The position numbers and the translations under genes are program-made. Positions 6,036-64,000 of a stretch of DNA of 64,000 nt are shown in pieces. The notes below the pieces were generated by a model that searched no databases, had not been told where the DNA came from, and saw nothing but the letters and a program-made list of their open reading frames with translations. Each line of letters begins with the position of its first letter. The first letter of the stretch is position 1. Origin of the DNA: an uncultured Pseudomonadales bacterium (lineage in GTDB: Bacteria; Patescibacteriota; Microgenomatia; UBA1400; UBA1396); contig CAZFLN010000003.1 of NCBI GenBank assembly GCA_964519905.1, positions 1,413 through 65,412 of the forward strand, given 5' to 3'.

Positions 6036-6036
6036 A

Positions 6037-11234: not shown

Positions 11235-11449
11235 GTCAAAACGACATGCAGACCCCAACATCATTCGCTGAGGCAATGAAGGAACTCGACACGCTCAACG
11301 AGTGGTTCCAGCAAGACGATCTCGATCTGGAGAAAGGTCTCGAAAAACTGCAACGCGCTCGTACACTGATTGAGTACTGTCAGAAACGACTCGACACCGT
11401 CGAAACCGAGTTCGTGCAGCTCAAGCAGGGATTTGAGAAGGTGGAGTAA
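11231..11449 (+). CDS. xseB: exodeoxyribonuclease VII small subunit
   Basis: 72 aa, SFAEAMKELDTLNEWFQQDDLDLEKGLEKLQRARTLIEYCQKRLDTVE. ATGA overlap with xseA. Confidence 0.8.
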   Translation: MSQNDMQTPTSFAEAMKELDTLNEWFQQDDLDLEKGLEKLQRARTLIEYCQKRLDTVETEFVQLKQGFEKVE

Positions 11450-11515
11450 GAAAATAAAAGTGAAGAAAACAGTTTTAAAATACGGTAGCATTAAAGGAAG
11501 TTCAACGCGGTGAGA

Positions 11516-12754: not shown

Positions 12755-12755
12755 T

Positions 12756-13586: not shown

Positions 13587-13588
13587 GG

Positions 13589-14119: not shown

Positions 14120-14148
14120 TGTATTCCTTTCTGCTCTGGATTCAGAGA

Positions 14149-15165: not shown

Positions 15166-15226
15166 ACGATTCTTTCTCCTCTTCTTGCATTGTACAGGAC
15201 GACGTTTATCTGGCAGAATAGGCGGG

Positions 15227-44087: not shown

Positions 44088-44127
44088 ATTCGCCTGAAAC
44101 TCTTGAGGTGTGCTAGGATTGGAGTAT

Positions 44128-46415: not shown

Positions 46416-46429
46416 AAGAAGTGGAACGT

Positions 46430-47404: not shown

Positions 47405-47440
47405 ATACAATCGAAAAGAGAGAAAGCGATTAAAGTTACT

Positions 47441-48667: not shown

Positions 48668-50283
48668 TGGCTCGAACTTTACAGAATTTTTGGGAACGGT
48701 ATACAGCTTGGTGGGAGAAACAATCCAATCTTGAACAGTGGGCGTTTGTTTCCCTCTGTGTTTCGTTTTGTATTGGTGCTGCTTTTCGATTCACAAATCT
48801 AGCCGCGAGTCTCCAATTTCAAGCCGATCAAGGAAGAGACGCAATTGTTGCCTACAATATTTTGCATGGTGACATTGCTTTGTTGGGACCATCCACAAGT
48901 GTGGGGAGTATGTATCTTGGTCCACTCTATTACTACTTCATGGCACCGTTTATTAGTTTATTTGGTATGAGTCCGATTGGACCAGCCATAGCGGTGGCTA
49001 CACTAAGCCTTTTGACTCTACCTATTTTGTTCTTGATTGTACGACGGTGGTTGGGCGTGACTGTGGCCACTTTTTCTGTTCTTGCTTATGCCACAGCTCC
49101 TTGGGTAGTAGAGTACTCACGATTTTCTTGGAATCCTAATCCTGCTCCAATTGTCAGTCTATTGCTGTGGTGGTCTGCCTGGAAGGCATTGCAGGGAAAG
49201 TACCGATGGTGGATGGCTGTTGGATTGTGGGCAGCAGTATTAATGCAGCTGCACTATGTTGCATTGCTCGCTATTGCTCCAGTTGGAGTGTGGTGGTTGT
49301 GGAATGGCGGGGAACTACTCTGGAAGCGTTCTTGGCATCAGCTTCGATCTTTTCTACTTTGGAGTTTTGGTGCTGGTTTGGTAGTTCTTGCTTCATTTAC
49401 TCCATTAGTGGCGTTTGATATCCGTTTTGACGGATTGATTCGCAGCGGATTCGAAGAATTTTTGTCAGGGTCTCAATCTGGTGAAGCATCGTCAATTGGA
49501 AGTTTACAGCGAGTTTGGCGCGAGCAAGAAGGAAGAACACTCTATAGTTTTGGTGAGTTTTGGGGTGGAAAAGATTCTATTCCTGCGTATCGAACAGTTC
49601 TGAAGAGTGTTCTCTTGGGAGTTGGAGTGGTATGGTTGTTTTTTGCATGGAGACTGAGGAGTCTTGGGAAATTAAAAATTTGGATGTACCTTACTTCCAT
49701 AATAGTTACTTCTATTGTCGGATTAGCTTGGTATCGTGGAGTTTTGCATGCGCATTACATAACATATTTGTATCCCATTGTGGGCATTGTTTTGGGTTCA
49801 GGAGTTACAGAATTGGCTTGTAGAGGACGCCTGGGACGAGTATTTGCTGGTATATTATTATCCCTAGCAATTGGAGCAAGTCTTATCCCAGGGACATACT
49901 ATTTCTTGGACTCTGCTGGCTGGCAATACAAAGATATGAGATTTATCTCACAACGGGTATTAGCTGAAGTTCCAAAAGATGCTACTTACTCTTTGACATT
50001 GCTTTCAGAAATTCGTGACTATCGTGGAATGAACTATAGGTATTTCCTTATTACATCTGATCATCCACCGATTGATTTAGCAGTTTCCCATGAAGCAGAC
50101 TACTTGGTTATTATCGCAGAATCTCCTGATGAAGCAGCTGATGTTCTTGGCTCACCGGTGTATGAAATTGTAACTTTCCCGAAAGGACAGTATCGTGTTG
50201 TTCAAGAGGATCGTGGACCAAAGATTTACATTATTGAAAATAGGGACAAAACACTCGGCATTCCAGAGAACGATACTCCGTGA
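48667..50283 (+). CDS. GT-C fold membrane glycosyltransferase (family 39/83, ArnT/PMT-like)
   Basis: First-loop acidic motif FQADQGRDA. More than 10 TM segments. Hydrophilic C-terminal domain. Start coupled to the upstream stop. Confidence 0.55.
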   Translation: MARTLQNFWERYTAWWEKQSNLEQWAFVSLCVSFCIGAAFRFTNLAASLQFQADQGRDAIVAYNILHGDIALLGPSTSVGSMYLGPLYYYFMAPFISLFGMSPIGPAIAVATLSLLTLPILFLIVRRWLGVTVATFSVLAYATAPWVVEYSRFSWNPNPAPIVSLLLWWSAWKALQGKYRWWMAVGLWAAVLMQLHYVALLAIAPVGVWWLWNGGELLWKRSWHQLRSFLLWSFGAGLVVLASFTPLVAFDIRFDGLIRSGFEEFLSGSQSGEASSIGSLQRVWREQEGRTLYSFGEFWGGKDSIPAYRTVLKSVLLGVGVVWLFFAWRLRSLGKLKIWMYLTSIIVTSIVGLAWYRGVLHAHYITYLYPIVGIVLGSGVTELACRGRLGRVFAGILLSLAIGASLIPGTYYFLDSAGWQYKDMRFISQRVLAEVPKDATYSLTLLSEIRDYRGMNYRYFLITSDHPPIDLAVSHEADYLVIIAESPDEAADVLGSPVYEIVTFPKGQYRVVQEDRGPKIYIIENRDKTLGIPENDTP

Positions 50284-50300
50284 TACAGTAAGGAAGCACT

Positions 50301-51062
50301 ATGGCACATCCATATCTCTCAGTCATTATTCCTGCCTATAACGAAGCCAAGAATTTCCAGCGTGGAGCACTCGACGAAGTATTGGCATATCTTCAGAAAC
50401 AGTCATTTGCTTGGGAAGTTATTCTGAGTGATGATGGTTCAACCGACAATACCGTCGAACTCCTTGAAAAGTTTGCCAAGCGTCATGCTGGAGTTCGTGT
50501 TTTGCAGAATCCACATCAGGGAAAAGGCCCAACTGTGACTGCTGGTATGCTGGCTGCGACTGGAAAGTATCGTTTGTTTACTGATTTTGATCAGTCTACG
50601 CCGCTGTCTGAGTTTGAGAAATTCGAACCTTTCTTTGACGACGGATATGATGTGGTAATCGGTTCACGAGAGATTCAAGGAGCTCGTCGAAAAGACGAAC
50701 CAATTCATCGTCACATAATGGGCAAGGGATTTAATATGCTGGTGCAGTTTGTGGCTGTTCCAGGGATTCATGATACGCAGTGTGGATTTAAGCTTTTTTC
50801 TGCGGAAGCCACCGAAAAACTTTTTCCTCGTTTGCGCGTCTATGGAGCCAAAAAGCGACAGGATGCTTTCACTGGTGCGTTTGATGTGGAGTTGCTTTTG
50901 CTCGCCAGGCATTTTAAGTATCGCATCGCTGAGGTTCCGGTAGAGTGGAATCATCATGAGACTGATCGAGTGAGTCCACTCAAAGACTCTATTCGAATGT
51001 TGGTTGATGTTTTGCGAATTCGCTGGACTGCTCTACGAGGACTGTACTCACATGCTGAGTAA
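50301..51062 (+). CDS. polyprenol-phosphate glycosyltransferase (DPM/GtrB-like GT2)
   Basis: LSVIIPAYNEAKNF, VILSDDGSTDNT, DFDQSTP and a TQCGFKLF block. Confidence 0.75.
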   Translation: MAHPYLSVIIPAYNEAKNFQRGALDEVLAYLQKQSFAWEVILSDDGSTDNTVELLEKFAKRHAGVRVLQNPHQGKGPTVTAGMLAATGKYRLFTDFDQSTPLSEFEKFEPFFDDGYDVVIGSREIQGARRKDEPIHRHIMGKGFNMLVQFVAVPGIHDTQCGFKLFSAEATEKLFPRLRVYGAKKRQDAFTGAFDVELLLLARHFKYRIAEVPVEWNHHETDRVSPLKDSIRMLVDVLRIRWTALRGLYSHAE

Positions 51063-52332
51063 ATGGATATCTCAACCGCAATTCCCCCGCTTTTTTTGGC
51101 TTTTTTCTGCGTTCTGGAGTGTGATCCTCTTGTCACTGTCATGGTGGTCATACGCTTTGGTTGATGGGAATCTTACCTTGCTCCCCTGGGAACCATTTAT
51201 GCAGTGGCAAACAAGTCGTTGGCAAGCTCAAGCGAATTTTTCGCTGATTGCTTGGCAGTATGTTGGGATTGTTCTGGTCTGGTGGGGAATGTTTTTATCT
51301 GTATTTGCCTTGTGGCACAAAGAATCAGTGCAAAAAGTTTCTTGGGCTTTTGGAGTGTTGTCTTTGACAGGAATTCTTTTCCTGTTTCTTGGACATAATG
51401 CTCACACTCGAGATATTTACAATTACCTTTTTAATGCCAAGATGTGGTTGAGTTACGGCGCGGATCCTCATATACGTACGGCGCTTGAATTCTCATACGA
51501 TCCCTGGACTCGTTTTATGCATAATACCCATATGCCAGCCCCATATGGATATGGCTGGACTCTCTGGTCATTTATTCCGTATATTCTTTCTGGAGCAGGG
51601 ATGTCATTTTTACTTTCATATTTTGCTATGCGAGGTTGGATGGTTTTGGGACTGCTCTTGCTTTTGGTTGCCACCTGGTGGGCGGTTCAATCTCAGGTTT
51701 TCTCAAAATCAGAACGCTGGTGGCGTTGGGCATTGGTTGGCTTGCATCCACTTCTACTCATGGAAGCTGTTTTGAACGGTCACAACGACGTGTGGATGAT
51801 GGCTCCAGTGATTGTAGCCTACGGTATTGCCCTGAGACCTCGACAGCGATGGCATTGGATTGTGATTCTCTTTTTGTTGGCATTCTCTGCGTTTTTGAAG
51901 TTTGCAACCGTCGCCGTTTGGCCAATATTTGTCTTGTTTCTCTTGCAGGATGTTGTTACTCAGATGAAGATTGGAATTCCAAGAATACTGTCTGTTTGGA
52001 AAAATTTTGGCATTCGGTACTCTGGAGATTTCGCCGCAGTGTGTATGGTGCTGCCACTGCTCACTCCGCGTTCAAAGTTTTTCCTCCCATGGTATGCCGT
52101 TTGGTTTCTGGCCTGGTTGCCATTTGGTCGGCTAGAAGGAGTTCGGTGGATACTCTTGGGGTTAAGTTTTACGAGTATGCTTCGTTACGTCCCATGGATG
52201 CTGGCGAACTATTCTTATGACTCTGCGACGATTCAGTCAGAGATGCAACTTATTACTTGGTCAGGATGTTTGCTAGGGTTGAGCTTGTGGATAGTGTGGC
52301 GAGTTATTCAATGGCGTAGATCACAAACATAA
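51052..52332 (+). CDS. polytopic membrane protein, putative GT-C/DUF2029-like glycosyltransferase
   Basis: About 12 predicted TM segments. Conserved-looking loop LNGHNDVWMMAPV. Lies between the GT2 and UbiA genes. The ORF-track start at 51004 overlaps the upstream gene. Confidence 0.35.
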   Translation: MLSKWISQPQFPRFFWLFSAFWSVILLSLSWWSYALVDGNLTLLPWEPFMQWQTSRWQAQANFSLIAWQYVGIVLVWWGMFLSVFALWHKESVQKVSWAFGVLSLTGILFLFLGHNAHTRDIYNYLFNAKMWLSYGADPHIRTALEFSYDPWTRFMHNTHMPAPYGYGWTLWSFIPYILSGAGMSFLLSYFAMRGWMVLGLLLLLVATWWAVQSQVFSKSERWWRWALVGLHPLLLMEAVLNGHNDVWMMAPVIVAYGIALRPRQRWHWIVILFLLAFSAFLKFATVAVWPIFVLFLLQDVVTQMKIGIPRILSVWKNFGIRYSGDFAAVCMVLPLLTPRSKFFLPWYAVWFLAWLPFGRLEGVRWILLGLSFTSMLRYVPWMLANYSYDSATIQSEMQLITWSGCLLGLSLWIVWRVIQWRRSQT

Positions 52333-53254
52333 CAAGAATTCCCCAAGCAATTGCCGCAACCAAAAGTGGTTTATCGCGCAGCAAGACGCGTTCTGGGGAC
52401 TCTCCCTCATTTGATTCATAGACGAGTTGTAGATACCGCATGACTCCGTAAATCGTGAGTGGGACCGTAAGCATGAGAAGTTTTTGCGCCGAAAAAGCGC
52501 GAGGCAGAAACGCAAGGACTGGTGGGACCACGCCAGTAGAAATATCTGTTTCTTGTTGGAAGGCAAAGAGCGCATAGGTCAACCATGCCGCATTGGCGAA
52601 CATACCTGTGTAAATATCGAGCAAACGCACGGAATAGGTGTTGAGCGCTTTGCGTGTGGCAAAACTTTTTCCGGACTCATCAACTCCTGTGAGCAGTGTT
52701 CGCTCACTTTGGCGCTTGGCCACCGCAATAAAGAGTGAGACAGAAATAACTGTCAGCAAGAACCAGACGCTCATGTGCAGATTTACGACGACTGCTCCCG
52801 CGTATACTCGTACCATAAATCCCGCGGCAATGGAGAGCACATCAAGAATGGAAATATGCTTAAACACAAAGCTGTAGCTGACTTGCAAAGCGACATACGC
52901 CAACATCAGTAAAAACACAAACGGTGACAGCAACCAGCCGCCAAAAAGGGCTATGCTGACCAGCACTGAAGCGGCGATTCCGGCTGTAACTGGTGAGAGC
53001 TTTCCACTTGCCAACGGGCGCTTTTTCTTGAAGGGATGTTTGCTATCGGATTCGCGATCAACAATATCATTGAGAACGTAGATCGACGAGGAAAGAAAAC
53101 AAAACAAAATAAACGTTTCCGTGACTCTCCAAAAATAACTTGGGAAATCATAAAAGAAAAAACCAGAGAACACCAGAGCAGCGAAGACAGCCAAGTTTTT
53201 TAACCATTGGCGCGGTCGGAAAGTCTTGAGGAGATAATAGAGCGTTGTAACCAT
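52304..53254 (-). CDS. UbiA prenyltransferase family protein (decaprenyl-phosphate phosphoribosyltransferase-like)
   Basis: NDIVDRESD (NDxxDxxxD) motif followed by KKKRPLASGKLS. Eight to nine TM segments. Confidence 0.55.
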   Translation of the reverse strand: MVTTLYYLLKTFRPRQWLKNLAVFAALVFSGFFFYDFPSYFWRVTETFILFCFLSSSIYVLNDIVDRESDSKHPFKKKRPLASGKLSPVTAGIAASVLVSIALFGGWLLSPFVFLLMLAYVALQVSYSFVFKHISILDVLSIAAGFMVRVYAGAVVVNLHMSVWFLLTVISVSLFIAVAKRQSERTLLTGVDESGKSFATRKALNTYSVRLLDIYTGMFANAAWLTYALFAFQQETDISTGVVPPVLAFLPRAFSAQKLLMLTVPLTIYGVMRYLQLVYESNEGESPERVLLRDKPLLVAAIAWGILVMFVIYAIE

Positions 53255-54294
53255 ACCAGCAGAGTGATAAAGATCAGTCCTGCAGCCATCATAGCATATC
53301 GCTTGCCCTCACTGCGGAGGCTTAGAGCCAGGATTCCAAAGATGAGCGTGGTAAGCCAGTAAAATCGAGCTATCTGCGGAATACTCCAGCCTGAATCGAG
53401 CATGCGGTGGTGGAGGTGTCCTCGGTCTCCCCAGAACGGTGATTTGCCCGCCGCCAGGCGGCGGGTGACGGCAAAGACGGCGTCGGCGGTCGGGATCGCC
53501 AGGAGAAGTAAAACCGTGGCAAGTTTTGCCCCCGACAAAATAGCTAACACGGCTAGAAAGTATCCGGCCAGCGATCCCGCGGCGTATCCAGGCATCATTT
53601 TCTGTGGATATTTATTCCACATCAGCAAACCAAAGTAGGCTCCACTGACGCTCAGTGCCAAAATAGTCACTGGCCATTGGCTGGTATCTCCGGCAAATCG
53701 AAGACTCAGCAAGGCAATGACCAAGGCAGCAATTGTTACGAAGCCGGGAAGTTGCCCATCCACGCCTTTGGACCAGTTTACAGCGTTCATGTTCCAGACA
53801 ATCCACAAGAGCGCGAGTCCGTCGGCAATGGGAGAAAAAGAGGCCTGGTAACCGAGAATCGAAAAAACTTGTGTGCCAATGGTTAAGTCTATGGTTCCAG
53901 GACCAAATGGATTGGTGACATAGTCGATGCCCACTCCGCCAAGGATCACACAGCCAGCAGCCAAAAAATTGAGGAGCCAGCGAATAAGTGGGTGAATGTC
54001 GTAGCGGTCATCGAGTGTTCCGCTGATCAGGAGAATAATAGCCCCAAGAATGACGCCAAGAATGGCGGAATCCCAAGGCCAGAGCAAAAATCCTCCCAAA
54101 ATGAGTCCAGCGGCAATCACGAGTCCTCCACCACGGGGAACCGGTGTGGTATGCACAGTTTTGGGATGGGAATTTTTATTGGGATCGTCAATCCAGCCAA
54201 TTTGTGAATAGAGTCGAATCACCAATGGCGCGGCTGCGGTGGACAGAAAAGCGGATCCTGCCCAAAGCAGCCCAAAGAGTGCCGCGGGGTTCAT
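53200..54294 (-). CDS. polyprenyl-phosphate N-acetylhexosamine-1-phosphate transferase (WecA/MraY family)
   Basis: IDDPNKNSHPKTVHTTPVPRGGGLVI block and multiple TM segments. Start taken at MNPAALFGLLW. Confidence 0.6.
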   Translation of the reverse strand: MNPAALFGLLWAGSAFLSTAAAPLVIRLYSQIGWIDDPNKNSHPKTVHTTPVPRGGGLVIAAGLILGGFLLWPWDSAILGVILGAIILLISGTLDDRYDIHPLIRWLLNFLAAGCVILGGVGIDYVTNPFGPGTIDLTIGTQVFSILGYQASFSPIADGLALLWIVWNMNAVNWSKGVDGQLPGFVTIAALVIALLSLRFAGDTSQWPVTILALSVSGAYFGLLMWNKYPQKMMPGYAAGSLAGYFLAVLAILSGAKLATVLLLLAIPTADAVFAVTRRLAAGKSPFWGDRGHLHHRMLDSGWSIPQIARFYWLTTLIFGILALSLRSEGKRYAMMAAGLIFITLLVWLQRSIISSRLSDRANG

Positions 54295-54644
54295 AGGATA
54301 ACTTTCATTATTCTCAGGAGCGCTAAGAGAAGCATTCCTTGTAAGAAACATACCGCCCACCAATTTAAGTGAGCGAGGTAGTTTTCGTGCTCAAGGTCGG
54401 TGACTCGTCCGTACAAAAATCCGATTACGAGAATCCATGTACTCAGCGCCGCGAAACTTACAACTGCCCAACTTGGAGCCAGTTGGTCCGTGAATTGGGT
54501 CAGTGAGTACCAGAGGGGAAGCGTTGTTGGGCCAATCCAGTACAGAAGTCCGCTGAGCGCACAGACACTGAACCAGAGAGCAGTGGAAATTCCCATCAGT
54601 CGGTTATGCTTAAAGTCGTAGCGAGGGAAACGAATCTTGGCCAT
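54291..54644 (-). CDS. small hypothetical membrane protein
   Basis: 117 aa with three hydrophobic segments. Coupled between two glycosyltransferase genes. Coding status is uncertain. Confidence 0.3.
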   Translation of the reverse strand: MAKIRFPRYDFKHNRLMGISTALWFSVCALSGLLYWIGPTTLPLWYSLTQFTDQLAPSWAVVSFAALSTWILVIGFLYGRVTDLEHENYLAHLNWWAVCFLQGMLLLALLRIMKVIL

Positions 54645-54656
54645 ACGTGTATTGTA

Positions 54657-56300
54657 TCAATTCTGGAAAAGGTGCAGACTTGGGTTGTTTGGTAGAGCAC
54701 CGCTTTCTGCAGAACTGCGATGGTAGATGATCATTTCACTCGTTTCGAGCACGGGTACATAATTTTGATTCATGTAGGTTTTTAGTTCTGGCCAGAGGGA
54801 CTCTTTTTTCATTTCAACAATAATTTTTGGTTCTGCCGCGATGACATCTTGGAGTACTTCATCATAGTTCTTGAGATCGTGTATATGGAAGGCTACAGTA
54901 AAACGACTGGCCGGATGACGCTGTGCTTGCGCGTAGAGAGTTGGGTTTGTACCCCAAATAAAAATAGGATCACCAGATGGAACAACACTCTGGATGTATG
55001 GCACGAGAGTTTCATTTTGCGGAACGATTCCGTTGAATCGAGCGCGATACTCAGCTGGTTGGGTGTGTCCAGTGAGAAGTTTCCAGGCGTTTTCGTAGTA
55101 CTGTCGTGTGGGATAGTGTCCGAATCCAATAAGCTCAGAGGCTCCCCAGAAAAGAAAGAATGTTACGAGGATTCCCCCTCGAGTTAGCCAGCCGGTGCTT
55201 GTCTGAATGAACCAACCCACAAGAAGTGCCATTGGTGGCACGACTTGGATCAGATAGTGCGGATAGGGCCGATTGGATAATAGTGCGCCAAACAGCGCCG
55301 CAACCAGCCAGAACATGGTCCAGGCTGGGAGTGCTTGTTTGGGAAACTTCCAAGTCAGAAGCAGTGCCAGGAGGAAACTTGAGATGAGTACCATTGTTTT
55401 GCCTGGCAAACTGAGAAGAAACAGCAAAGCCGGGTTTTGAACTGGCAGTGACCATGTTCCAGTGTAATGGAAGTTGTAGAGCAGTCCAAATTCAAGATAC
55501 TCTGTCCCCGCGCCTCGCACCCAGAAATAGAGGATGGAGAGGAGCAGAGGAGTAACGAAACCAGCAGTGAGTGCCAAGCCATGGGCCAAGAGTATTTGCA
55601 GATTTTTGAAAGGTGATTTTTTCCTAGATTTAAGCGAGAGAAGGAACGAAAAAATCACCACACTGCCTATGGCTCCAAGATCCAGAATAGCAGGCACTTT
55701 TGTGAGCAATGCCAAGCCGACGACTGCTCCAGCAGCACCAAATCTCCAGAGTTGGTACCCAGGCGCAACAGGTGCTTTCTTATTTTCCAGTGTTTTCCAC
55801 CAGCCAGCACGAGCGAGCCACCACATACCAGCCAACAAAAATCCAAGCACAAAGAGTTCCCCATTTGGAATATTTCCTTCCCAGCGAGGCAGACAGGTGG
55901 CGAGTACAAATATTCCAGTTGCGAGCCACGTTCCCCAACGATTCAACCAGCGTTTCGCAAGAAGATAGAAAAAGGTAGTACTTGCCAAGCTCCAGACTAT
56001 ATTGAGCACTCGGAACCAAAACTGATCCGGAACCATTGCCAGGTAATAAATAATCGGAGTCTTATGATCAACGATGTCCCTGTACAGAATGGCTCCATTG
56101 CGGAGTGCAGTTCCTATGGTGAGATAGATGGCTTCGTCACCGTACCAGTAGGGCTCTGCTAAGTTGGGGATTCGCAAAAGCAGATTCAGTGCCAGGAATA
56201 TTAACAAGGCTTCCTGATTATTCGCCCAGGTATTGAATTGAAGAAATCGAGTTTTGATACTTTGCCACGAAAGAGTGTGTGAGACACGAGACATACACAA
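54657..56300 (-). CDS. GT-C fold membrane glycosyltransferase (family 39/83, ArnT/PMT-like)
   Basis: Loop motif AEPYWYGDEAIYLTIGTAL (DE motif). More than 10 TM segments. C-terminal soluble domain. Confidence 0.6.
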   Translation of the reverse strand: MCMSRVSHTLSWQSIKTRFLQFNTWANNQEALLIFLALNLLLRIPNLAEPYWYGDEAIYLTIGTALRNGAILYRDIVDHKTPIIYYLAMVPDQFWFRVLNIVWSLASTTFFYLLAKRWLNRWGTWLATGIFVLATCLPRWEGNIPNGELFVLGFLLAGMWWLARAGWWKTLENKKAPVAPGYQLWRFGAAGAVVGLALLTKVPAILDLGAIGSVVIFSFLLSLKSRKKSPFKNLQILLAHGLALTAGFVTPLLLSILYFWVRGAGTEYLEFGLLYNFHYTGTWSLPVQNPALLFLLSLPGKTMVLISSFLLALLLTWKFPKQALPAWTMFWLVAALFGALLSNRPYPHYLIQVVPPMALLVGWFIQTSTGWLTRGGILVTFFLFWGASELIGFGHYPTRQYYENAWKLLTGHTQPAEYRARFNGIVPQNETLVPYIQSVVPSGDPIFIWGTNPTLYAQAQRHPASRFTVAFHIHDLKNYDEVLQDVIAAEPKIIVEMKKESLWPELKTYMNQNYVPVLETSEMIIYHRSSAESGALPNNPSLHLFQN

Positions 56301-56331
56301 CAGTGTACCAGCTTGCAGAAGAGGCGGAAAC

Positions 56332-56360
56332 TCGAAAAATGACCGAATTTTTGGTATAAT
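56332..56360 (+). promoter_or_regulatory. promoter of ssrA (extended -10)
   Basis: TGgTATAAT at 56352-56360 with a weak -35 tcgaaa 17 bp upstream. Confidence 0.5.
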
Positions 56361-56402
56361 AAATAGGTGCGAATTTTTGCAATCAGAAATTCACACAGTT
56401 CT

Positions 56403-56788
56403 GGGGATGCATTGCGTTGACGGAACGAGATCGTGAACAGGAGCATGCCGAATTCTCCCGCGTTATGGGGGAGGCTTTTATCTGCCAATAAGATTTCATC
56501 TCTCGTGAACCGAGTAGCTACGGCTGTCTTTGGTTCCGAGTCTGCTTACGCTTTCGCGTAAACCAGATGTCGACTCATTCATCGTCTTAGCGTGAGTGAA
56601 CTCGGCAAAAACCCAGCTAAGATGCGTGTGTCGTTCTGCCCTTTGAGGAACGCGCACTAAGACACGCATTGGCGCCAAGTGTACGTTGGATCACTCACGA
56701 CACTTGGTTTAAGCAAAAGTGATCTGAGCATGGAGTGCCTGTTTATTTTCTCTTTCAGACTCGGGGTCGCTCCCCGACATCTCCACCA
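56403..56788 (+). ncRNA. ssrA: transfer-messenger RNA (tmRNA, SsrA)
   Basis: 5' GGGGAUG pairs with 3' CAUCUCC-A-CCA, including a G3-U wobble (the AlaRS identity element). T-arm-like hairpin before ACCA. GCAUGCCGA block as in E. coli tmRNA. Internal tag frame ends ...ESAYAFA-TAA (stop 56559-56561). A T7 run follows the 3' end. Confidence 0.85.
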
Positions 56789-56801
56789 GTTTTTTTGATG
56801 T

Positions 56802-57431
56802 TTATGCTCTTGCCACTGTGAGCGCATATATGTTTCTCACTCCAGCAGCGTTGAGAGCTCGAGCGCACGCACTGAGTGTGGCTCCTGTTGTGTGGACATC
56901 GTCTACCAGGCAAACGGTTTTGTACTGACTGCGTCGTGTACATCGAAACGCGGTGGTAATGTGGTGACGGTGATTTTTATCTTGTCCCGCCTGCGACTGC
57001 TGCCAGTGGGTTCGGTGTAGGAGTGTTGTGTCCGTGGGAATGCCTGATCGACAAGAAAGACGTTCTGCGAGCAGAACTGTCTGATTGAATCCTCGAGCGC
57101 GCTGGCGCTTGGGGTGGAGAGGGACTGGGATGAGTGCTTCTATTTTGTGTTGGTGGAGCCAAGGTTGGCTTTGCTGCGCCAGCGCGTCTCCCAGCGGCTG
57201 AGCAAGTACTCGTGCTCGTTTGTACTTATAGGTATGGAGGATTTTTGCCATGTGCTCGTCGTACTCACAGAGACTCCAGATTTTTCGCAGACTTGGATGG
57301 GCGAGTTTGGGCAGGACTTCTGGCCGATCACACCAAGACATTCTGCGCCAGCAACGGGCGCAAATCCATTTCCTGAATCGCCCACACCCTTGGCAAAACG
57401 GTGGAAACAATATATCGAGGATATGCATCAA
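56802..57431 (-). CDS. comF: ComF family protein (phosphoribosyltransferase domain)
   Basis: N-terminal Cys-rich zinc finger (CQGCGRF...CARCW). C-terminal PRTase motif VCLVDDVHTTGATL. Confidence 0.75.
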   Translation of the reverse strand: MMHILDILFPPFCQGCGRFRKWICARCWRRMSWCDRPEVLPKLAHPSLRKIWSLCEYDEHMAKILHTYKYKRARVLAQPLGDALAQQSQPWLHQHKIEALIPVPLHPKRQRARGFNQTVLLAERLSCRSGIPTDTTLLHRTHWQQSQAGQDKNHRHHITTAFRCTRRSQYKTVCLVDDVHTTGATLSACARALNAAGVRNIYALTVARA

Positions 57432-58269: not shown

Positions 58270-58356
58270 GGAAGGGTCGCATAGTGGTCGAGTGCGGTAG
58301 TCTTGAAAACTACTGAGGGTTTACGCTCTCCGTGGGTTCGAATCCCACCCCTTCCG
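58270..58356 (+). tRNA. tRNA-Ser (anticodon UGA)
   Basis: Acceptor GGAAGGG/CCCTTCC, 3-bp D-stem, anticodon stem GTAGT/ACTAC with loop CTTGAAA, long variable arm, T-arm GTGGG-TTCGAAT-CCCAC. No encoded CCA. Confidence 0.9.
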
Positions 58357-58486
58357 CAAGTCTTTCTCGCTTTCCCATTCGCTGCTATACATGGAATAAT
58401 TTGATGTATGGTGTACTATATGTTGTAAACTCACATCTCAGTTTTCCTTGTTTTTTTATGTAGTATGTAGAAGAAAAAATTTGTTT

Positions 58487-59317
58487 ATGAAAAATGCACA
58501 TTTTTTAAATGGTCAAATTGTCTCTGAGGATGATCTACAGATATCACCACGAGATTTGGGCTATTCCCGTGGATATGCTGTTTTTGAATTTATGCTTGCT
58601 CATAAAGGTCGTCCGTTTATGCTTGATAAGCATATGGATAGATTGTTTGCTTCTTGTGAGTCAATAGCACTTACTCTACCTTGGTCAAAAGAGCAAATTT
58701 CTGAATGGGTACTAAAAACTCTTGATGCAAATAAGTCTAAAGAAGAAAAAGTTATACGTATCATAATTTCCGGGGGACCATCTGAGACACTTGTTCCTGC
58801 AAGTATGCCCACCATAGTGATGGTGGTTGATTCTCGTCTTGGAGGCCTCCCTGAAGAATATGAAAAGGGCGTTCATGTTTTGCTTTCTGAATTTCAAAGG
58901 TATGAGCCTCAAGCTAAAACAAATAATTATATTGAAGCAGTTCGGCAGTTTAGATCCATACCTAAGGATATTCATGAAGTTATATATCATTCCGAAAATA
59001 TGGTGCGTGAAGGAACAAGGTGTAATGTGTTTGCATTGGTAAATGGTACTTTGGTCACTCCTAGAACTGGTATTTTGGAAGGAATCACAAGAAGTGTAAT
59101 ACTTAATGAATTACAACTGTCCCTACCAGTTGAGACGAGAGATTTTTCTGTAAAAGAATTACTTGAATCTCCAGAAGTATTCATCACTGCAACAAGTAAG
59201 GAAGTGATGCCAGTAACTAAGCTGAACAACCAACTTGTGGGAGATGGTTTAGTAGGTCCCGTCACCAAAGAGGTAATGAGTAAGTTCCGCGCTTTTTTTG
59301 AGTCAGATCTTTGGTAG
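58487..59317 (+). CDS. class IV (fold type IV) aminotransferase (D-amino-acid/branched-chain aminotransferase family)
   Basis: RGYAVFEFM, RIIISGGPS and EGTRCNVFALVNGTLVTPRTGILEGITRSV blocks. AT-rich codon usage. The true start is taken as MKNAHF. Confidence 0.65.
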   Translation: MKNAHFLNGQIVSEDDLQISPRDLGYSRGYAVFEFMLAHKGRPFMLDKHMDRLFASCESIALTLPWSKEQISEWVLKTLDANKSKEEKVIRIIISGGPSETLVPASMPTIVMVVDSRLGGLPEEYEKGVHVLLSEFQRYEPQAKTNNYIEAVRQFRSIPKDIHEVIYHSENMVREGTRCNVFALVNGTLVTPRTGILEGITRSVILNELQLSLPVETRDFSVKELLESPEVFITATSKEVMPVTKLNNQLVGDGLVGPVTKEVMSKFRAFFESDLW

Positions 59318-59325: not shown

Positions 59326-60138
59326 TTAGGTCCACAAAGATAGTGCCCCATCTTTCAATGTCATGAATGTGTTAAGTGCAAGTCGTGGTTTGTTTGACTT
59401 TATTGCTTCTACTTGGTGAAAATTTCGTGATCGAAACACTACTAAATCTCCCGCTGAGGGCATTACCGTGGCGTGTGGAGTACTATTGAGAAAGTCCTCG
59501 GTGAAGCCATACGTTCCTTTTTGTCCAATATCATTATTGTGCCCCTCGTCCTCTTGTTTCCAAGGTCGATTGTAGACAGTCAACCCTCCACCTTGAGCGA
59601 CCATCTGGAGATATAATACGAGACCAAATTGCTCCTGTGAATCAGATACGCTCCATCCTGGCAGTTGATTTGGAGCATAGTCAAAGTGTAGGGTGCTTTT
59701 TGCTCCCATAGCTCTAATAAGGCCTGCGAAGTATTGAGCATTTTGCATATCTGGTTCAGTCGCTAGAGAAGTGATGTAACTACGTGAAAAAAGTTCAATA
59801 ATTCTATTGATTGGGTTTCGGACGCCTTCAAATATTTCATCTCGAACTCTTGAAGCTTGTGGAGCTGAATCAAAGTACTTTTTCTTACCATCATCTTTAT
59901 AGTGATATTCTGTTGTGCTTATACCAATTCTACCCTGCTGATTTTCTTTGTTTGGGTACCACTGTATTGCTTTTTTTTCCAAATTTTTGATCACTATTTC
60001 GAGTTCTTGTGATAATAAGAATTGACTGATTTGAATAGCTGCAAATTCGTTTGCTGAAAGTGCTGGAAGGAGTGAGGATACTTCAACTGAGTCATCTGCG
60101 CCTAATTGAGCCACGCTCCATTGATTCTCTTTGCTCAT
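59326..60138 (-). CDS. 2-oxoglutarate/Fe(II)-dependent oxygenase superfamily protein
   Basis: HxD (LHFDY), distal His (NFHQVEAI) and Arg (RLAL) spaced as in PhyH/P4H-like dioxygenases. Confidence 0.5.
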   Translation of the reverse strand: MSKENQWSVAQLGADDSVEVSSLLPALSANEFAAIQISQFLLSQELEIVIKNLEKKAIQWYPNKENQQGRIGISTTEYHYKDDGKKKYFDSAPQASRVRDEIFEGVRNPINRIIELFSRSYITSLATEPDMQNAQYFAGLIRAMGAKSTLHFDYAPNQLPGWSVSDSQEQFGLVLYLQMVAQGGGLTVYNRPWKQEDEGHNNDIGQKGTYGFTEDFLNSTPHATVMPSAGDLVVFRSRNFHQVEAIKSNKPRLALNTFMTLKDGALSLWT

Positions 60139-60261: not shown

Positions 60262-61713
60262 ATGAAAATTGTAAATTTGCTGCTCATTGGACTCGGCCCT
60301 CACGCGAGACGTATTTATGTCCCCGCTCTTTTCAAATTAGCTAAGGATTTTCCTGTACGACTCATTGTCGCTGTAGACTTGAAAAGCCAAAAAAATTCTA
60401 TCGAGAATTACCTTCAGAATAATGGATATGATTTGGAAATGTTGTATCTTAATCCCTTTGATGTCACTGAAGGAATTCCTGATCGCTCAGAGCAAATGCT
60501 AAATTTTTTGGTTGATAGGTTTGATATACATGGTGTTGTCATATCGACAGAGCCCACTGTTCATAAGTCCTATGCCGAATGGGCCCTTCGAAAAAGGCTA
60601 CACATTCTTATGGACAAACCAATTTCTGTGAGGAAGGGTATTAGCGTTGATCAATCTCAAGCAAAGGGTTTGATTGATGACTATAATGAGCTTTTCAAGC
60701 TATACAAATCTATTCAGAAAGATAAATCAACAATTTTTTCTATAAACGTTCAGAGAAGATATGAGCGAGGCTTCGATAAAGTTCGAGATCTGGTTTCAGA
60801 AACAACTCAAAAGTTTAATGTTCCCGTGACATCTATGCAAATTATGCATGCTGACGGTTCATGGAGATTCCCAAAAGAAATACTCAGCCAACCATCTCAT
60901 GGTCTCCAAGATGGATTTGGGAAAGTGTCACATAGTGGATATCACTTGTTTGATATGGCTTGGCAAATCTATCAGTCTAGTCGTGTTCAAAATAAGCAAC
61001 CTGATCAACTAGAAATTTTTTCTTCACCTTTAAATCCTACAGGGCTCGACGTTAACTTGAATGAGAAAGACTATATCAAATATTTTGGATCTAACTATGA
61101 ACGAACCGGACTTTCTTCGAAGCAATACTTAGCCAAAGTCTCTGACTATGGTGAGATCGACTCATTTAACATGATCAGACTCCTTAAGGAGGGTGAGAAT
61201 ATTTGTAACATCTCTATAAATTTGTTGCATAGTAGTTTTTCAAGACGTTCATGGGCAAAACCCAATGAAGACCTATATAAGGGGAATGGAAGAGTAAAGC
61301 ATCAGCAATTTACAATTCAACAAGGGCCTTTTCAGTGTATCCAAGTTCATAACTATCAATCTAAAGATAAACATGATGTAGATAACTCTAATGAGTTTGA
61401 GGTGGGTGGAAACAATCATTTTGATATATATGTATTCCGTAATGTTGGTATGTTTGGTGAAGGAAATGCCTTCCAGAAAATATCTGCAACGGAATTAGAG
61501 GAACGGACAGATGATACCGGACTGACAAATGAAAATGCTAAACACCGTGTAATAATAGAATTTATTAATTTTATTCTTGGGCGAATACATTTGAATGATG
61601 TGAAATCAAATATTGACTCCCATGATGTTCCTACGAAGTTAATGAGTGGGGTGTCTCAGTCGAGTGCAAATATTCGTAGTAATAAAAATCCTTTAGTTCG
61701 TATCACGATATGA
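60262..61713 (+). CDS. Gfo/Idh/MocA family oxidoreductase with extended C-terminal domain
   Basis: N-terminal Rossmann KIVNLLLIGLGPHARRIYVPAL and HILMDKP (EKP-like) motif. 483 aa. An extended -10 TGTATAAT lies upstream. Confidence 0.6.
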   Translation: MKIVNLLLIGLGPHARRIYVPALFKLAKDFPVRLIVAVDLKSQKNSIENYLQNNGYDLEMLYLNPFDVTEGIPDRSEQMLNFLVDRFDIHGVVISTEPTVHKSYAEWALRKRLHILMDKPISVRKGISVDQSQAKGLIDDYNELFKLYKSIQKDKSTIFSINVQRRYERGFDKVRDLVSETTQKFNVPVTSMQIMHADGSWRFPKEILSQPSHGLQDGFGKVSHSGYHLFDMAWQIYQSSRVQNKQPDQLEIFSSPLNPTGLDVNLNEKDYIKYFGSNYERTGLSSKQYLAKVSDYGEIDSFNMIRLLKEGENICNISINLLHSSFSRRSWAKPNEDLYKGNGRVKHQQFTIQQGPFQCIQVHNYQSKDKHDVDNSNEFEVGGNNHFDIYVFRNVGMFGEGNAFQKISATELEERTDDTGLTNENAKHRVIIEFINFILGRIHLNDVKSNIDSHDVPTKLMSGVSQSSANIRSNKNPLVRITI

Positions 61714-62336
61714 CAGGATCAATTTATCTCATCGGGGGAGGAGAAATTAGAGGTGGGGAAACCCATCTAATCCATGAGAATATTATGTCGCTTGCTCCCA
61801 AAGGATCTACTCTCGTGTTTTTTGGTTTTGCTGCACAAGATAGTGCTGATTATGCTAATGCTATCAAATCTGTTTTTGGCAAGAAATTTAAAGTTTTAGT
61901 TCCTACAAAAGAAAAAGGTCATGAATATGCTATCAACGCTATTCAATCCTCATCAGTAATATATCTTGGCGGTGGCGATACAGATCTATTGATACGATTA
62001 TTTTCTGAGTGGAAGCTTGTTGAACATTTATCAGCTGCAGTCGCAAAAGGTGTTCATGTTGCGGGTATGAGTGCTGGGGCTCAAGCGTTGTCTCATTGGT
62101 ATATCCATGAAGAAGGCGAAAACATGGAAGTAAGAAAGGGTTGGGGTTTTGCTTCTGTCTGCACGCTAGTACATGCTCATCGAGACTCATTCGAAAAGGC
62201 CAAATCTGTATGGGAGAACTTCCCGAGAGAGGATGAGTGTTCTTTTGTGGCGATTGGCGAGAGAGCCGCCTGGTGTATTAACTCATCGGGAAAGCAAAGA
62301 ATTGGCAGTGGCAATATTTATGGAGAAGATTCTTAG
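61710..62336 (+). CDS. peptidase S51 family (dipeptidase E/cyanophycinase-like)
   Basis: IYLIGGGE, VIYLGGGDTDLL and catalytic-Ser block VAGMSAGAQAL. ATGA overlap with the upstream oxidoreductase. Confidence 0.6.
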   Translation: MTGSIYLIGGGEIRGGETHLIHENIMSLAPKGSTLVFFGFAAQDSADYANAIKSVFGKKFKVLVPTKEKGHEYAINAIQSSSVIYLGGGDTDLLIRLFSEWKLVEHLSAAVAKGVHVAGMSAGAQALSHWYIHEEGENMEVRKGWGFASVCTLVHAHRDSFEKAKSVWENFPREDECSFVAIGERAAWCINSSGKQRIGSGNIYGEDS

Positions 62337-62416: not shown

Positions 62417-63079
62417 GTGAGTGAAAGAATAAATAACGTCTTTCGAACTGTTCAAGCTGAGACGCAGTGTCCTTTTGCTAAATCAGCCATTATCACATTT
62501 GCACGTCCAATTTCAGCTGAGTTTTCTATACCAGAAGCCGCTCAACAACTTTTTGAAGATCTTGTTGCTTATGTTAAAGAAGGTATTGTAACAGTGCCTG
62601 ATGGTCTGGCAGTTGCTCTGCCCAATACGGTGATTGGAGAAGACTTTAAATCCTTAACGTTAGGATTTAAGGCTCTGTACCACGCACTAAAAATACATGA
62701 TGGATTGAGCGAAGAGTCTATAACTACCGAGAACATTGAAGATCCAGGCTGGCAACTGACGATAGCCGAACAACGTCTATTTACACTTGTTTTTGGATCG
62801 TTGTATCCTGCTAATAACCCACGTCATATTTCTATAGCGGACACTACTTTTGTATTTTTTCAACCAGTTCAAAGTTTTAGCGATCGAATACCAGCTGATA
62901 AGCACAGCGAAGAATTCAAGAAACTAAAACAGAGTATTCGGACTCGCTTTAGTGAAGCAGGAAGAGCGTATGATGCAGCCATCCATGATGACCCACGAGA
63001 AGCTGCGAAATATCTGTCCCCTCTACATTTAGGCATGCCAGCGGTGGAGTGGTGGAAAAGTGATCGGCCTGAAGAATAG
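62417..63079 (+). CDS. YqcI/YcgG family protein (tentative)
   Basis: N-terminal QCPFAKSAIITF resembles the FPCxFA signature of YqcI/YcgG. Size is ~220 aa. Confidence 0.35.
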   Translation: MSERINNVFRTVQAETQCPFAKSAIITFARPISAEFSIPEAAQQLFEDLVAYVKEGIVTVPDGLAVALPNTVIGEDFKSLTLGFKALYHALKIHDGLSEESITTENIEDPGWQLTIAEQRLFTLVFGSLYPANNPRHISIADTTFVFFQPVQSFSDRIPADKHSEEFKKLKQSIRTRFSEAGRAYDAAIHDDPREAAKYLSPLHLGMPAVEWWKSDRPEE

Positions 63080-63121
63080 TTTTATTCAACCTAAAATTTA
63101 TCAGTAATTAAAGGAGTTGTT

Positions 63122-64000
63122 ATGACGGAGCATTTGAAATCGAGATTTCAGCAATACCATCAGGATAAAGGTTTTTCTATTTACAAACCCTTTCCATTAG
63201 TAACTACTGATGATCCTACGGTTTTGTTTACCAATGCTACTATTACTCCATTTAAAAACATGTTTACCGGAGAAACGGCTGCTGGAAATTATGCTCTTGT
63301 GCAAAAGTGTCTTCGTTTAGGCGGCACGGGTGGGAATGCGGATAGAGCTCGCGAGGACATACACTACACTTCACTGTTTGAGATGCTTGGTAGTGGGTAT
63401 TTTGGTGTAAGTCCAGTGGTTGCCCTAGAATATTTCGTTGAAATGTTAGAGGCATTAGGGCTCCAAATGGAAAAAATGATCTTTTCTTCAATAGAAGGCA
63501 ATCCACTAGCAGCGGCACTCATGTCTTCGACCTTAGATTTAAATCAGATTCGTATTGTTAAAGACCCGAAAGAATTGCAACATGAGTGGAGTTTTGGCGA
63601 AGGAGATTTGCATGGCGTTGGCGTGATTGCATGGTTTGACTCAGAAGGACTAGGAAAAAACACTGCTTTGAGTGACTGTTTGCAGATAGGTAGGATTGTA
63701 CACATTGATGGTATTTCTGAAGGCGGATCTGTAAGACCTTTTGAGTACAACGCATTTGATGTGGGATTGGGTATGGGTAGAGTTGAGCGTGCTATAACAG
63801 GTCAAGGGGAAGCTTCCTTACAGCCTTGGAGGGATCTATCTAAACAATTTAAAAATATTTTTGAGCATATCTCTGATGGAGATGCTCACTACATGTCAAA
63901 TCTTTGCCTGGTTATTGATGAGTTAACTTTTGAAGGACTAGAACCAGGGAAGAAGAAACACTCGTACGTACTTAGAAAAATTATTCGTTCCTTGATAGAG
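63122..64000 (+). CDS. alanyl-tRNA synthetase catalytic-domain paralog (divergent; C-terminus beyond window)
   Basis: Strong RBS AAAGGAG. Open frame to the window end. Collinear AlaRS blocks: DPTVLFTNATITPFKNMFTG, QKCLRLGG, HYTSLFEMLGSGYFG, DVGLGMGRVERAI and SYVLRKIIRSL. The motif-2 Arg context (RHHTFFEMLGN) and the GPCGPC block are not conserved. Confidence 0.6.
   Translation, partial: MTEHLKSRFQQYHQDKGFSIYKPFPLVTTDDPTVLFTNATITPFKNMFTGETAAGNYALVQKCLRLGGTGGNADRAREDIHYTSLFEMLGSGYFGVSPVVALEYFVEMLEALGLQMEKMIFSSIEGNPLAAALMSSTLDLNQIRIVKDPKELQHEWSFGEGDLHGVGVIAWFDSEGLGKNTALSDCLQIGRIVHIDGISEGGSVRPFEYNAFDVGLGMGRVERAITGQGEASLQPWRDLSKQFKNIFEHISDGDAHYMSNLCLVIDELTFEGLEPGKKKHSYVLRKIIRSLIE

Follow-up and report, generated by a model that had tools for sequence, protein, structure and literature searches.

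A stand-alone protein derived from alanyl-tRNA synthetase, predicted to be an accessory enzyme, is encoded in a recurrent gene cassette of Patescibacteria

The only characterised stand-alone enzyme derived from alanyl-tRNA synthetase (AlaRS) is AcmF of the ascamycin pathway in Streptomyces, described in 2024. AcmF, a truncated AlaRS-like protein of 370 amino acids, takes alanine from Ala-tRNA and transfers it to the sulfamoyl amine of a nucleoside, dealanylascamycin, which occupies the adenylate site (Zheng et al. 2024 ACS Catal 14:3533, via PMC12945691). The genes are ordered acmD, acmE, acmF; AcmD, an AlaRS of 871 amino acids, charges tRNA-Ala, and the hydrolase AcmE strips the alanyl group (PMC12945691; PMC4257720). 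Here, an AlaRS-like gene is described that occupies positions 63122-64000 on the forward strand of a 64,000-nucleotide stretch of contig CAZFLN010000003.1 (the window), which derives from an uncultured bacterium of the Patescibacteriota, the candidate phyla radiation (CPR). Judged from its sequence, the encoded protein is a divergent, stand-alone AlaRS-derived accessory enzyme and not the translational alanyl-tRNA synthetase of the cell. That it acts as a cassette-dedicated, AcmF-like aminoacyl transferase or ligase on a small molecule, most likely with Ala-tRNA as the donor, is the proposal we favour, at about even odds.

The gene is an open reading frame (ORF) without breaks that runs over 293 codons from an ATG at 63122 to the end of the window:

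63111-63116, + strand: Shine-Dalgarno sequence AAGGAG, 5 nt before the ATG at 63122, read directly from the sequence
63122-64000, + strand: AlaRS-like gene, N-terminal 293 of about 369 codons, reaching from the class II aminoacylation domain into the first part of a helical tRNA-recognition-type domain and cut by the window edge

Residues 5-290 match the Pfam family tRNA-synt_2c (PF01411) at E = 6.4e-21 (74.9 bits against a gathering cutoff of 30.3), and the catalytic fragment of Aquifex aeolicus AlaRS (1riq/3htz) is matched at E = 7.6e-18. The homology to the AlaRS N-terminal domain that had been noticed in an earlier reading of this ORF (the original prediction), like the divergence, is therefore far beyond chance, and the blocks DPTVLFTNAT, QKCLRLGG, FEMLG and YVLRKIIRS are all found in the protein. 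On the models for alaS it reaches 64.5 bits (TIGR00344, cutoff 457) and 40.4 bits (NF002436, cutoff 529); for P0001, an orthologue of full length, the values are 66 and 39.2 bits, respectively. P0001 (94% identical) and a second orthologue, P0002 (90%), are both 369 amino acids long and have no editing or C-Ala domain. In locus L001, a 94-kb contig with a 90%-identical orthologue, a stop after 369 codons is followed by an unrelated gene, and neither an editing domain (tRNA_SAD) nor a C-Ala/DHHA1 domain was found C-terminal to the catalytic fragment in the full-length orthologues and homologues. Since the orthologues end at 369 amino acids, the part of the window gene beyond the edge should comprise about 76 residues and no editing and C-Ala module. 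An AlphaFold2 (AF2) model of P0001 (predicted local distance difference test, pLDDT, 91.2; predicted template-modelling score, pTM, 0.88) retrieved with Foldseek, as top matches, exclusively AlaRS catalytic fragments (5knn, 3htz, 1riq, 3hxu) at a template-modelling (TM) score of 0.77 and E = 3e-21. Identity amounts to 23% with Escherichia coli AlaRS (tblastn) and to 18-21% with the PDB fragments (structural alignments). The sequence is collinear with E. coli AlaRS from residue 1 to about 411 and ends just past a TFGI(K/R)P motif, the counterpart of YDTYGFP. Between the window gene and its orthologue in L001, the ratio of nonsynonymous to synonymous substitution rates (dN/dS) is 0.087. The gene is thus under purifying selection and functional, and a decaying gene or pseudogene is unlikely given this ratio and an invariant active-site core.

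For the active site, residues are numbered as in E. coli AlaRS without the initiator methionine, save for Asp400, which follows Met-inclusive numbering, and for residues given as those of the window protein. R69 in the E. coli sequence QRCVR is the class-defining motif-2 arginine, and the roles given to R69, K73, N212, D235 and G237 are in part those of the AcmF review. The diagnostic segments are the following:

63314-63316, + strand: R65 (E. coli R69, motif-2 Arg) in QKCLR, retained, and invariant both in 107/107 family members and in the alignment A1
63353-63406, + strand: second strand of motif 2, EDIHYTSLFEMLGSGYFG, residues 78-95; H-Y-T stands in place of RHH, whereas M88 and F86, the Phe that stacks on adenine, are kept
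63590-63622, + strand: SFGEGDLHGVG, residues 157-167, in place of canonical QMGDTGPCGPC; the preceding Trp, W156 (E. coli W170), is kept
63683-63703, + strand: strand LQIGRIV (canonical IEIWNIV); E209 is Q188, N212 is R191 (nucleotides 63692-63694), V214 is kept
63758-63781, + strand: motif 3, D213-V-G-L-G-M-G-R220; alpha-amino-binding Asp and motif-3 Arg are retained, E241 is Gly

Retained are R69, F90, M92, W170, V214, D235, G237, G239 and R242, the kept core being R65, F86, W156, V193, D213, G215, G217 and R220 in the numbering of the window protein. R65, R220, D213 and G215 are invariant or nearly so in the family, and the catalytic core of R65, D213, G215, G217 and R220 is invariant across members that share only 36-40% identity. 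Other positions are changed throughout the clade (G42 to T, M43 to I, K73/H74/N75/D76, R85/H86/H87, M172 to F, E183 to I/T/V and W211 to G/L). The K73-H74-N75-D76 loop here reads T-G-G-N and the R85-H86-H87 triad H/N-Y-T, and the canonical succession KHND...RHHTFFEMLGN / GPCGPC(S/T)E / IEIWN appears in the window protein as TGGN...IHYTSLFEMLGS / GDLHGVGV / LQIGR. A further set of changes is confined to group 1, the subgroup of the clade that contains the window protein, and consists of E209 to Q (most members), N212 to R, Q217 to D, Asp400 to Ala/Ser/Gly and a pocket change, F215 to H. At the N212 site, the sister groups keep Asn. The equivalent of Asp235 is Asp throughout group 1 and Glu in several members of the sister groups. 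The family also has a Gly-rich GGTGG loop and a near-invariant R77. Asn303 and Asp400 read the G3:U70 identity pair of the tRNA, and the D400A exchange leaves E. coli AlaRS virtually inactive (PMC6055181); the Asn303 site is Lys277 in the window protein, and the Asp400 site is Ala in P0001. The helical domain is highly conserved, with a basic PGxKKHxYVLRKxIRS helix, the TFGI(K/R)P motif and invariant E293, W296, T358 and G360, which argues for continued binding of an RNA-like partner.

These assignments change the original prediction in several places. Both strings that it quoted, EDIHYTSLFEMLGSGYFG and SFGEGDLHGVG, are exact, but the motif-2 Arg it held to be replaced had been mis-assigned: R65 in QKCLR is kept, and it is the RHH triad and the KHND loop that are lost. 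The one-residue insertion reported there was recovered by neither HMMER nor MAFFT; instead, a one-residue deletion follows GYF. Its motif DxGxGxER reads DVGLGMGR in register, so that the motif-3 Arg is indeed present while the Glu before it is Gly; the "ER" corresponds to residues 222-223, which are out of register and unconserved. The notion of a divergent AlaRS catalytic-domain paralogue with a new function agrees with the lack of editing and C-Ala domains in the orthologues, with the score of 64.5 against 457 bits and with the position in a separate clade. The orthologues stop at 366-392 amino acids, and a bona fide AlaRS is encoded on the contig of another family member (L017), which is not what a full-length sole alaS would give. 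As a whole, the earlier interpretation is only partly supported. The statement on the motif-2 Arg was wrong, and the decisive context, a conserved cassette, was not visible to it.

A search over 5.8 billion proteins yielded 342 matches, and the figures on homologues that follow refer to the best 120 of these 342. The apparently full-length ones measure 362-392 amino acids, save one entry of 449 (P0005); apart from four short fragments without a recorded match, all of the 120 have PF01411 as their only domain. A fusion was considered for P0005 and rejected, as its extra 80 residues form an N-terminal extension that most likely stems from a mis-called start. Some members are labelled "alanine--tRNA ligase-related protein" at NCBI, and the named sources include Saccharimonadales, Levybacteria, Nomurabacteria and "Patescibacteria group". 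In a profile search of 1.84 billion cluster representatives, stand-alone proteins of 367-404 amino acids scored at least 278 bits (a few distant ones 165-219) and full-length canonical AlaRS (about 800-880 amino acids) at most about 154 bits. A neighbour-joining tree that included canonical AlaRS, among them the short type of about 600 amino acids found in Patescibacteria, recovered the stand-alone proteins as monophyletic in 100/100 bootstraps; they fall into four groups, with the window protein in group 1. Both the score gap and the tree place the window protein with the short stand-alone clade and apart from canonical AlaRS. This clade of proteins of 362-409 amino acids, mainly from Patescibacteria with some cyanobacterial members, carries the signature FTNAT(I/V)TP, no KHND/RHH, F for M172 and T/I/V for E183. 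A survey of 185,579 species, each represented by one genome, turned up 12 loci, which makes the clade a rare one. Neither the clade nor its CPR distribution nor the group-1 cassette is described in the literature searched, and the kind of enzyme is known from one case, AcmF.

AcmF, compared here by its published description, resembles the window protein in length (370 versus about 369 amino acids) and in consisting of the aminoacylation and tRNA-recognition-type domains only. In both, the motif-2 Arg is kept, the equivalent of Asn212 is mutated and the Asp and Asn that read G3:U70 are lost. Both have a hydrolase gene as a neighbour (AcmE, which removes the aminoacyl group, on the one side, and peptidases of families S51 or S66, which may do so, on the other), and in many relatives of the window protein a canonical-type AlaRS lies nearby, either as a fragment of 431-439 amino acids or as an 877-amino-acid copy, as AcmD does in the ascamycin cluster. 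Several differences exist between the two proteins. AcmF carries N219Q at the N212 site and D232E at the D235 site, whereas the window protein has N212 changed to R and E209 to Q and keeps the Asp; the motif-2 loop of AcmF is shorter, as deduced from residue numbers. The hosts are Streptomyces and CPR bacteria, respectively, and the pathway in the window (aminotransferase IV, 2-oxoglutarate (2OG) oxygenase, Gfo-like dehydrogenase and S51 peptidase) bears no relation to sulfamoyl-nucleoside synthesis. With P0263, the member most similar to AcmF in loop lengths, as the seed, a search returned cyanobacterial and CPR proteins and no Streptomyces protein. Catalytic fragments of canonical AlaRS (E. 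coli 1-441/461N, 3HXU; A. aeolicus AlaRS453, 1RIQ) share the fold (TM 0.77), the collinearity to residue 411 and residues R69, F90, W170, V214, D235, G237 and R242. In contrast to them, the window family is some 50-90 residues shorter, accessory and island-borne, lies below the cutoffs of the alaS hidden Markov models (HMMs) and has the KHND loop, RHH, GPCGPC, E183, E209, N212 and D400 all replaced. More distantly, SbzA (IleRS-like), the SerRS-like amino acid:carrier-protein ligases, AsnA and PoxA/EpmA likewise represent aminoacyl-tRNA synthetase (aaRS) domains recruited for non-translational acylation, but they descend from other parent synthetases; the present system has no carrier-protein partner and, unlike AsnA, keeps a tRNA-recognition-type domain.

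The AlaRS-like gene is the last of a co-directional run in the window, in which only the 2OG oxygenase gene lies on the opposite strand. Upstream of it, the cassette comprises:

58270-58357, + strand: tRNA-Ser(UGA), the upstream cassette edge, where GC content falls from about 0.49 to about 0.40
58487-59317, + strand: class IV aminotransferase of the BCAT/DAAT fold, which probably starts at the ATG at 58487 within an ORF open from 58448
59326-60138, - strand: WelO5/BesD-family Fe(II)/2OG oxygenase, Pfam PF22814 at 70.5 bits, H-x-D...H with invariant HFD and RNFHQ
60262-61713, + strand: Gfo/Idh/MocA-type NAD(P) dehydrogenase of 483 amino acids, the most conserved cassette member
61710-62336, + strand: peptidase S51 (PepE/cyanophycinase family) with conserved GxSAG Ser, His and Glu; its start overlaps the stop of the upstream gene
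62417-63079, + strand: YqcI/YcgG-like protein of 220 amino acids that has a conserved N-terminal Cys (CPFA); its 21.1 bits on Pfam PF08892 fall short of the cutoff, 27

The Pfam family of the oxygenase encoded at 59326-60138 (- strand) is named "carrier-protein-independent halogenase WelO5", yet hydroxylation is expected; a halogenase reading was rejected in view of the invariant H-F-D—rather than His-x-Gly/Ala—which indicates the hydroxylase-type triad. For the Gfo-like protein, an AF2 model (pLDDT 89) has as its nearest folds scyllo-inositol, glucuronide-3- and levoglucosan dehydrogenases and DgpA, that is, dehydrogenases of secondary alcohols in sugars and cyclitols. A faint similarity of its residues 292-336, including a DSF motif, to the carrier protein DltC (NCBIfam E = 0.0028; PDB E = 0.11) was followed up and discarded as a chance resemblance, because the putative Ser is unconserved in 115 homologues and the model is an ordinary Gfo/Idh/MocA fold. 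YqcI/YcgG proteins are thiolate-heme N-hydroxylases that act on arginine derivatives in natural-product pathways (PMC12866846).

In all ten distinct group-1 loci examined, the AlaRS-like gene lies within a few kb of the aminotransferase, 2OG oxygenase and Gfo-like genes. This linkage spans 49-90% identity of the AlaRS-like protein and survives a rearranged gene order in L004, L015 and L017. The S51 peptidase gene is present in every one of these loci but L017, and the YqcI/YcgG-like gene is optional, occurring in about half. The cassette counts five to seven genes on about 5.5-7 kb, has a GC content of 39.2% compared with 46.3% for the remaining window, and is flanked by genes that are unlike even between the window and its 90% relative. 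A tRNA gene is found no more than about 1.2 kb from a cassette edge in eight of the ten loci. In the window it is Ser(UGA), directly ahead of the cassette, and elsewhere Asn, His, Tyr or Gln. As their identity differs between loci, the flanking tRNAs mark insertion sites and are not substrates, which also disposes of a tRNA dedicated to the cassette. In these respects, the cassette looks like a horizontally mobile, low-GC island that inserts at tRNA genes. Directly upstream of the cassette in L012, a 342-amino-acid ORF (3159-4187, - strand) resembles IS30-family transposases by sequence alone and would fit mobility. In L015, tRNA-His (5608-5683 / 11860-11935) and the AlaRS-like gene (10001-11044 / 16253-17296) are doubled exactly 6252 nt apart; either the cassette is duplicated in tandem there or the assembly wraps around.

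Scanning of the fetched loci revealed canonical-type AlaRS copies in L012, L013, L017, L024, L025 and L026. The group-1 cassettes L012 (4322-5617) and L013 (3763-5082) begin with a canonical-type fragment of 431 and 439 amino acids, respectively (299 and 316 bits on TIGR00344). In L017, a complete short-form AlaRS of 623 amino acids (14444-16315) lies directly beside the cassette and exceeds both alaS cutoffs (NF002436, 641.5 versus 529); canonical AlaRS of CPR bacteria are short, of about 600 amino acids. Sister-group loci have the following composition:

L005, group 2, 3534-9732: AlaRS-like protein of 385 amino acids and no canonical-type AlaRS within the flanks; S66 MccF-type peptidase, Orn/DAP (ornithine/diaminopimelate) decarboxylase, AdoMet (S-adenosylmethionine, SAM) decarboxylase, methyltransferases, two DCD-fold proteins
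L024, group 3, 3692-11181: AlaRS-like protein of 399 amino acids and a tandem 433-amino-acid fragment with 37.5% identity to residues 4-425 of E. coli AlaRS; S66 peptidase, Orn/DAP decarboxylase, methyltransferases, two DCD-fold proteins, carbamoyltransferase
L026, Berkelbacteria, 10001-15885: AlaRS-like protein of 397 amino acids and a 436-amino-acid canonical-type fragment; S66 peptidase, tRNA-synt_2-like gene, methyltransferases, AdoMet decarboxylase
L025, Microcoleus (cyanobacterium), 5451-15234: AlaRS-like protein of 380 amino acids and an 877-amino-acid AlaRS; S66 peptidase, tRNA-synt_2-like gene, methyltransferases, ATP-grasp, no decarboxylase

An MccF-type S66 peptidase and methyltransferases thus occur in 4/4 of these loci, a decarboxylase in 3/4 and a canonical-type AlaRS copy in 3/4. 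The cassette-linked fragments of L012, L013, L024 and L026 share their cassettes with the AlaRS-like protein and, like it, are truncated and without an editing domain. Unlike it, they keep motifs of the types GPCGPCTE, HH(G/L)T, (Y/H)(I/V)EIWN and (H/Y)D(S/T)xG(F/V)P, score 281-435 bits on the alaS models, on which the window protein reaches 64.5 (TIGR00344) and 40.4 (NF002436), and fall among canonical AlaRS in the tree. In their gene content only, the sister cassettes with their S66 peptidase, SAM-dependent methyltransferase fold and decarboxylase recall microcin C, an aminoacyl-nucleotide "Trojan horse" system (MccD, the MccE decarboxylase and the S66 peptidase MccF), and the S51 peptidase of the window cassette holds a place analogous to that of the MccF-type enzyme. 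They differ from microcin C in having neither an MccA peptide nor the ThiF-like enzyme MccB, and the window cassette itself contains no S66 peptidase, methyltransferase or decarboxylase.

Cassette-dedicated aminoacyl transfer is proposed because the combination of an AlaRS-like protein, a canonical AlaRS and a peptidase mirrors AcmD, AcmE and AcmF. From these parallels we infer the donor, the acceptor, the product and the role of the peptidase, the acceptor entirely so. First, the housekeeping AlaRS would charge a tRNA, a task that in some cassettes could fall to the AlaRS fragment encoded there. The AlaRS-like enzyme would then take the alanyl group—or one of the size of Gly or Ser—from Ala-tRNA, its remodelled class II pocket holding an alanine-sized aminoacyl group beside an adenosine-type ligand. 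In a further step, the group would be passed to the amine of a small molecule in the adenylate site, yielding a stable amide. The acceptor probably comes from the neighbouring genes: dehydrogenase and aminotransferase may convert a secondary alcohol to an amine, on a scaffold resembling a sugar, a cyclitol or a nucleoside, and the 2OG and heme enzymes may add hydroxyl groups. Finally, the S51 peptidase might undo the amide in the manner of AcmE and MccF, which would provide immunity or activation. RifL, for its part, is paired with RifK. A conversion from hydroxyl via keto to amine is the logic of Pur10 and Pur4 in aminonucleoside synthesis, and Pur10 resembles RifL (PMC11641026).

Several findings weigh against AcmF-like transfer from Ala-tRNA. 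The window's own cassette holds no canonical-type AlaRS copy, tblastn with E. coli AlaRS found no canonical alaS or other AlaRS homologue in the 64-kb window, and no transporter or regulator gene is present in the cassette. The D235 site, Glu in AcmF, is retained as Asp in the window protein. With Asp400 and K73 lost—the latter reported to cross-link to the tRNA 3' end—canonical tRNA binding cannot be taken for granted. Binding of ATP or phosphate and self-activation of an amino acid would also be compatible with the arginines of motifs 2 and 3, the GGTGG loop and the near-invariant R77.

The last point leads to the main rival, an ATP-dependent and tRNA-independent amide or ester ligase, which would form its own aminoacyl-adenylate and pass the acyl group to an amine made by the cassette, for example a 3'-amino-nucleoside in the A76 pocket, giving a puromycin-like amide. 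We consider this possible, though on the doubtful side. No variation occurs at the window residues R65, F86 (which stacks on adenine), R220, D213 (which binds the amino group) and G215/G217. Phosphates could be bound by the GGTGG loop and R77, and apart from the AlaRS-like gene the window's cassette has neither a gene for an activating enzyme nor an AlaRS copy; K73 and Asp400, the reader of G3:U70, are lost. The protein also ends at the equivalent of E. coli residue 411, short of 461N, and in classic deletion work AlaRS fragments shorter than 461N reportedly form the adenylate without charging tRNA. A Gfo/Idh/MocA dehydrogenase together with an aminotransferase would fit the aminonucleoside logic of Pur10 and Pur4 (PMC11641026). 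Self-activation is harder to reconcile with the replacement of K73, H74, R85, H86, E183 and E209, the residues expected to hold the triphosphate and Mg, and with the strong constraint on a tRNA-recognition-type helical domain of about 120 amino acids, since tRNA-independent aaRS paralogues usually shed such domains. Moreover, an AlaRS-like enzyme that activated alanine on its own would leave no need for the canonical-type AlaRS of related cassettes.

Two further readings appear improbable to about the same degree. In one of them, the protein is an aaRS-like loader that places a non-proteinogenic amino acid made by the cassette, for instance a hydroxylated or transaminated one, on a tRNA, another RNA or a carrier for use by another enzyme. 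Only the group whose cassettes encode enzymes of an amino-acid type (BCAT-like aminotransferase, BesD/WelO5-type hydroxylase and Arg-hydroxylase-like YqcI/YcgG protein) shows the pocket changes N212 to R, E209 to Q, F215 to H and Q217 to D, the helical domain is kept, and a related pair of Gfo483 and 2OG oxygenase genes lies between LysRS-type genes in L023. The pocket-narrowing W170, V214 and G237 are unchanged, though, and no PP-binding carrier protein and no transferase that uses aminoacyl-tRNA (Fem/GNAT, CDPS or MprF) is encoded in the cassette, the faint DltC-like similarity resting on an unconserved Ser. In the other, the protein is a non-catalytic pseudo-synthetase, that is, a binding, immunity or regulatory protein which sequesters a compound resembling an aminoacyl-adenylate or senses alanine. 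Many AlaRS catalytic residues are replaced, and aaRS paralogues with regulatory roles exist, HisZ being an example; invariance of R65, D213, G215, G217 and R220 at 36-40% identity, the dN/dS of 0.087, the operonic arrangement with enzymes and a peptidase, and the catalytic nature of AcmF as the lone characterised analogue speak against it.

A genuine translational AlaRS—minimal, split, second-copy or inhibitor-resistant—is very improbable: collinear homology to E. coli residues 1 to about 411, the kept class II core and the reduced genomes of CPR bacteria with their short canonical AlaRS (about 600 amino acids) would agree with it, but the protein falls far below the alaS cutoff (64.5 versus 457 bits), occurs in only 12 of 185,579 species genomes and always inside the cassette, lies on a low-GC island, shares a contig with a true 623-amino-acid AlaRS in L017, and has Ala/Ser/Gly for the Asp400 whose exchange in D400A virtually inactivates the E. 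coli enzyme (PMC6055181). The changed Asp400 and the many altered catalytic residues likewise make the "resistant or copy-2 AlaRS" of the original prediction unlikely, and a split AlaRS as in Nanoarchaeum was rejected on account of the non-canonical catalytic motifs and of the lack of an adjacent second-half gene.

All examined members of this monophyletic clade are encoded in small cassettes, of which nearly all include a peptidase and many an additional canonical-type AlaRS. Should the analogy with AcmF hold, aaRS-derived aminoacyl transferases would represent a recurrent route to aminoacylated small molecules. The clade would then also be among the few hints that CPR bacteria, regarded as biosynthetically minimal and as living on other cells, carry out specialised antimetabolite chemistry, and a source of new enzymes for aminoacyl-nucleoside or amino-sugar conjugates. 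As a tentative and rather doubtful extension, the cassette might be a compact, mobile CPR pathway for an antimetabolite of the aminoacyl-amino-sugar or aminoacyl-aminonucleoside type, a compound akin to puromycin or ascamycin that would mimic Ala-tRNA or Ala-AMP and hit translation or AlaRS in hosts or competitors. The group-1 protein would in that case be a new type of enzyme that makes the amide directly with a remodelled site (N212 to R, E209 to Q and the GGTGG loop), and the S51 peptidase its partner for immunity or activation. The cassette is small enough for synthesis and expression, which makes the question directly testable.

Outside the cassette, the window holds an ordinary class II aaRS gene (29215-30627, + strand; tRNA-synt_2b and HGTP_anticodon) as well as FtsH, UvrB, MiaA and MsrAB, and therefore represents chromosomal DNA of a small-genome bacterium. 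A tyrosine recombinase of the Phage_integrase family, possibly of the XerC/D type, is encoded at 39869-40726 (+ strand). Upstream of the cassette, a long run of cell-envelope glycan genes (44110-57431) encodes a UDP-glucose/GDP-mannose dehydrogenase, two enzymes of the GDP-mannose-4,6-dehydratase family, GT2 and GT4 glycosyltransferases, a PMT_2 protein and a UbiA prenyltransferase; this run is not conserved beside the cassette elsewhere. Gfo-like paralogues of about 50% identity belong to another recurrent cassette (L021, 6752-13116; L022, 8001-14046; L027, 8001-13336; L028, 4870-13221), found on contigs of uncultured-bacterial metagenome-assembled genomes and of metagenomes, which combines the Gfo-like enzyme with thiamine pyrophosphate (TPP)-dependent and serine hydroxymethyltransferase (SHMT)-like enzymes and, variably, an SDR protein, a DegT aminotransferase, an alanine racemase and a NUDIX protein. 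In L023 (3570-11949), a class I LysRS of 525 amino acids and an 824-amino-acid class II aaRS-like protein flank a Gfo483 homologue (54% identity) and a WelO5-like oxygenase, with an LPG_synthase_C gene nearby—a second case in which the dehydrogenase/oxygenase pair travels with aaRS-type genes.

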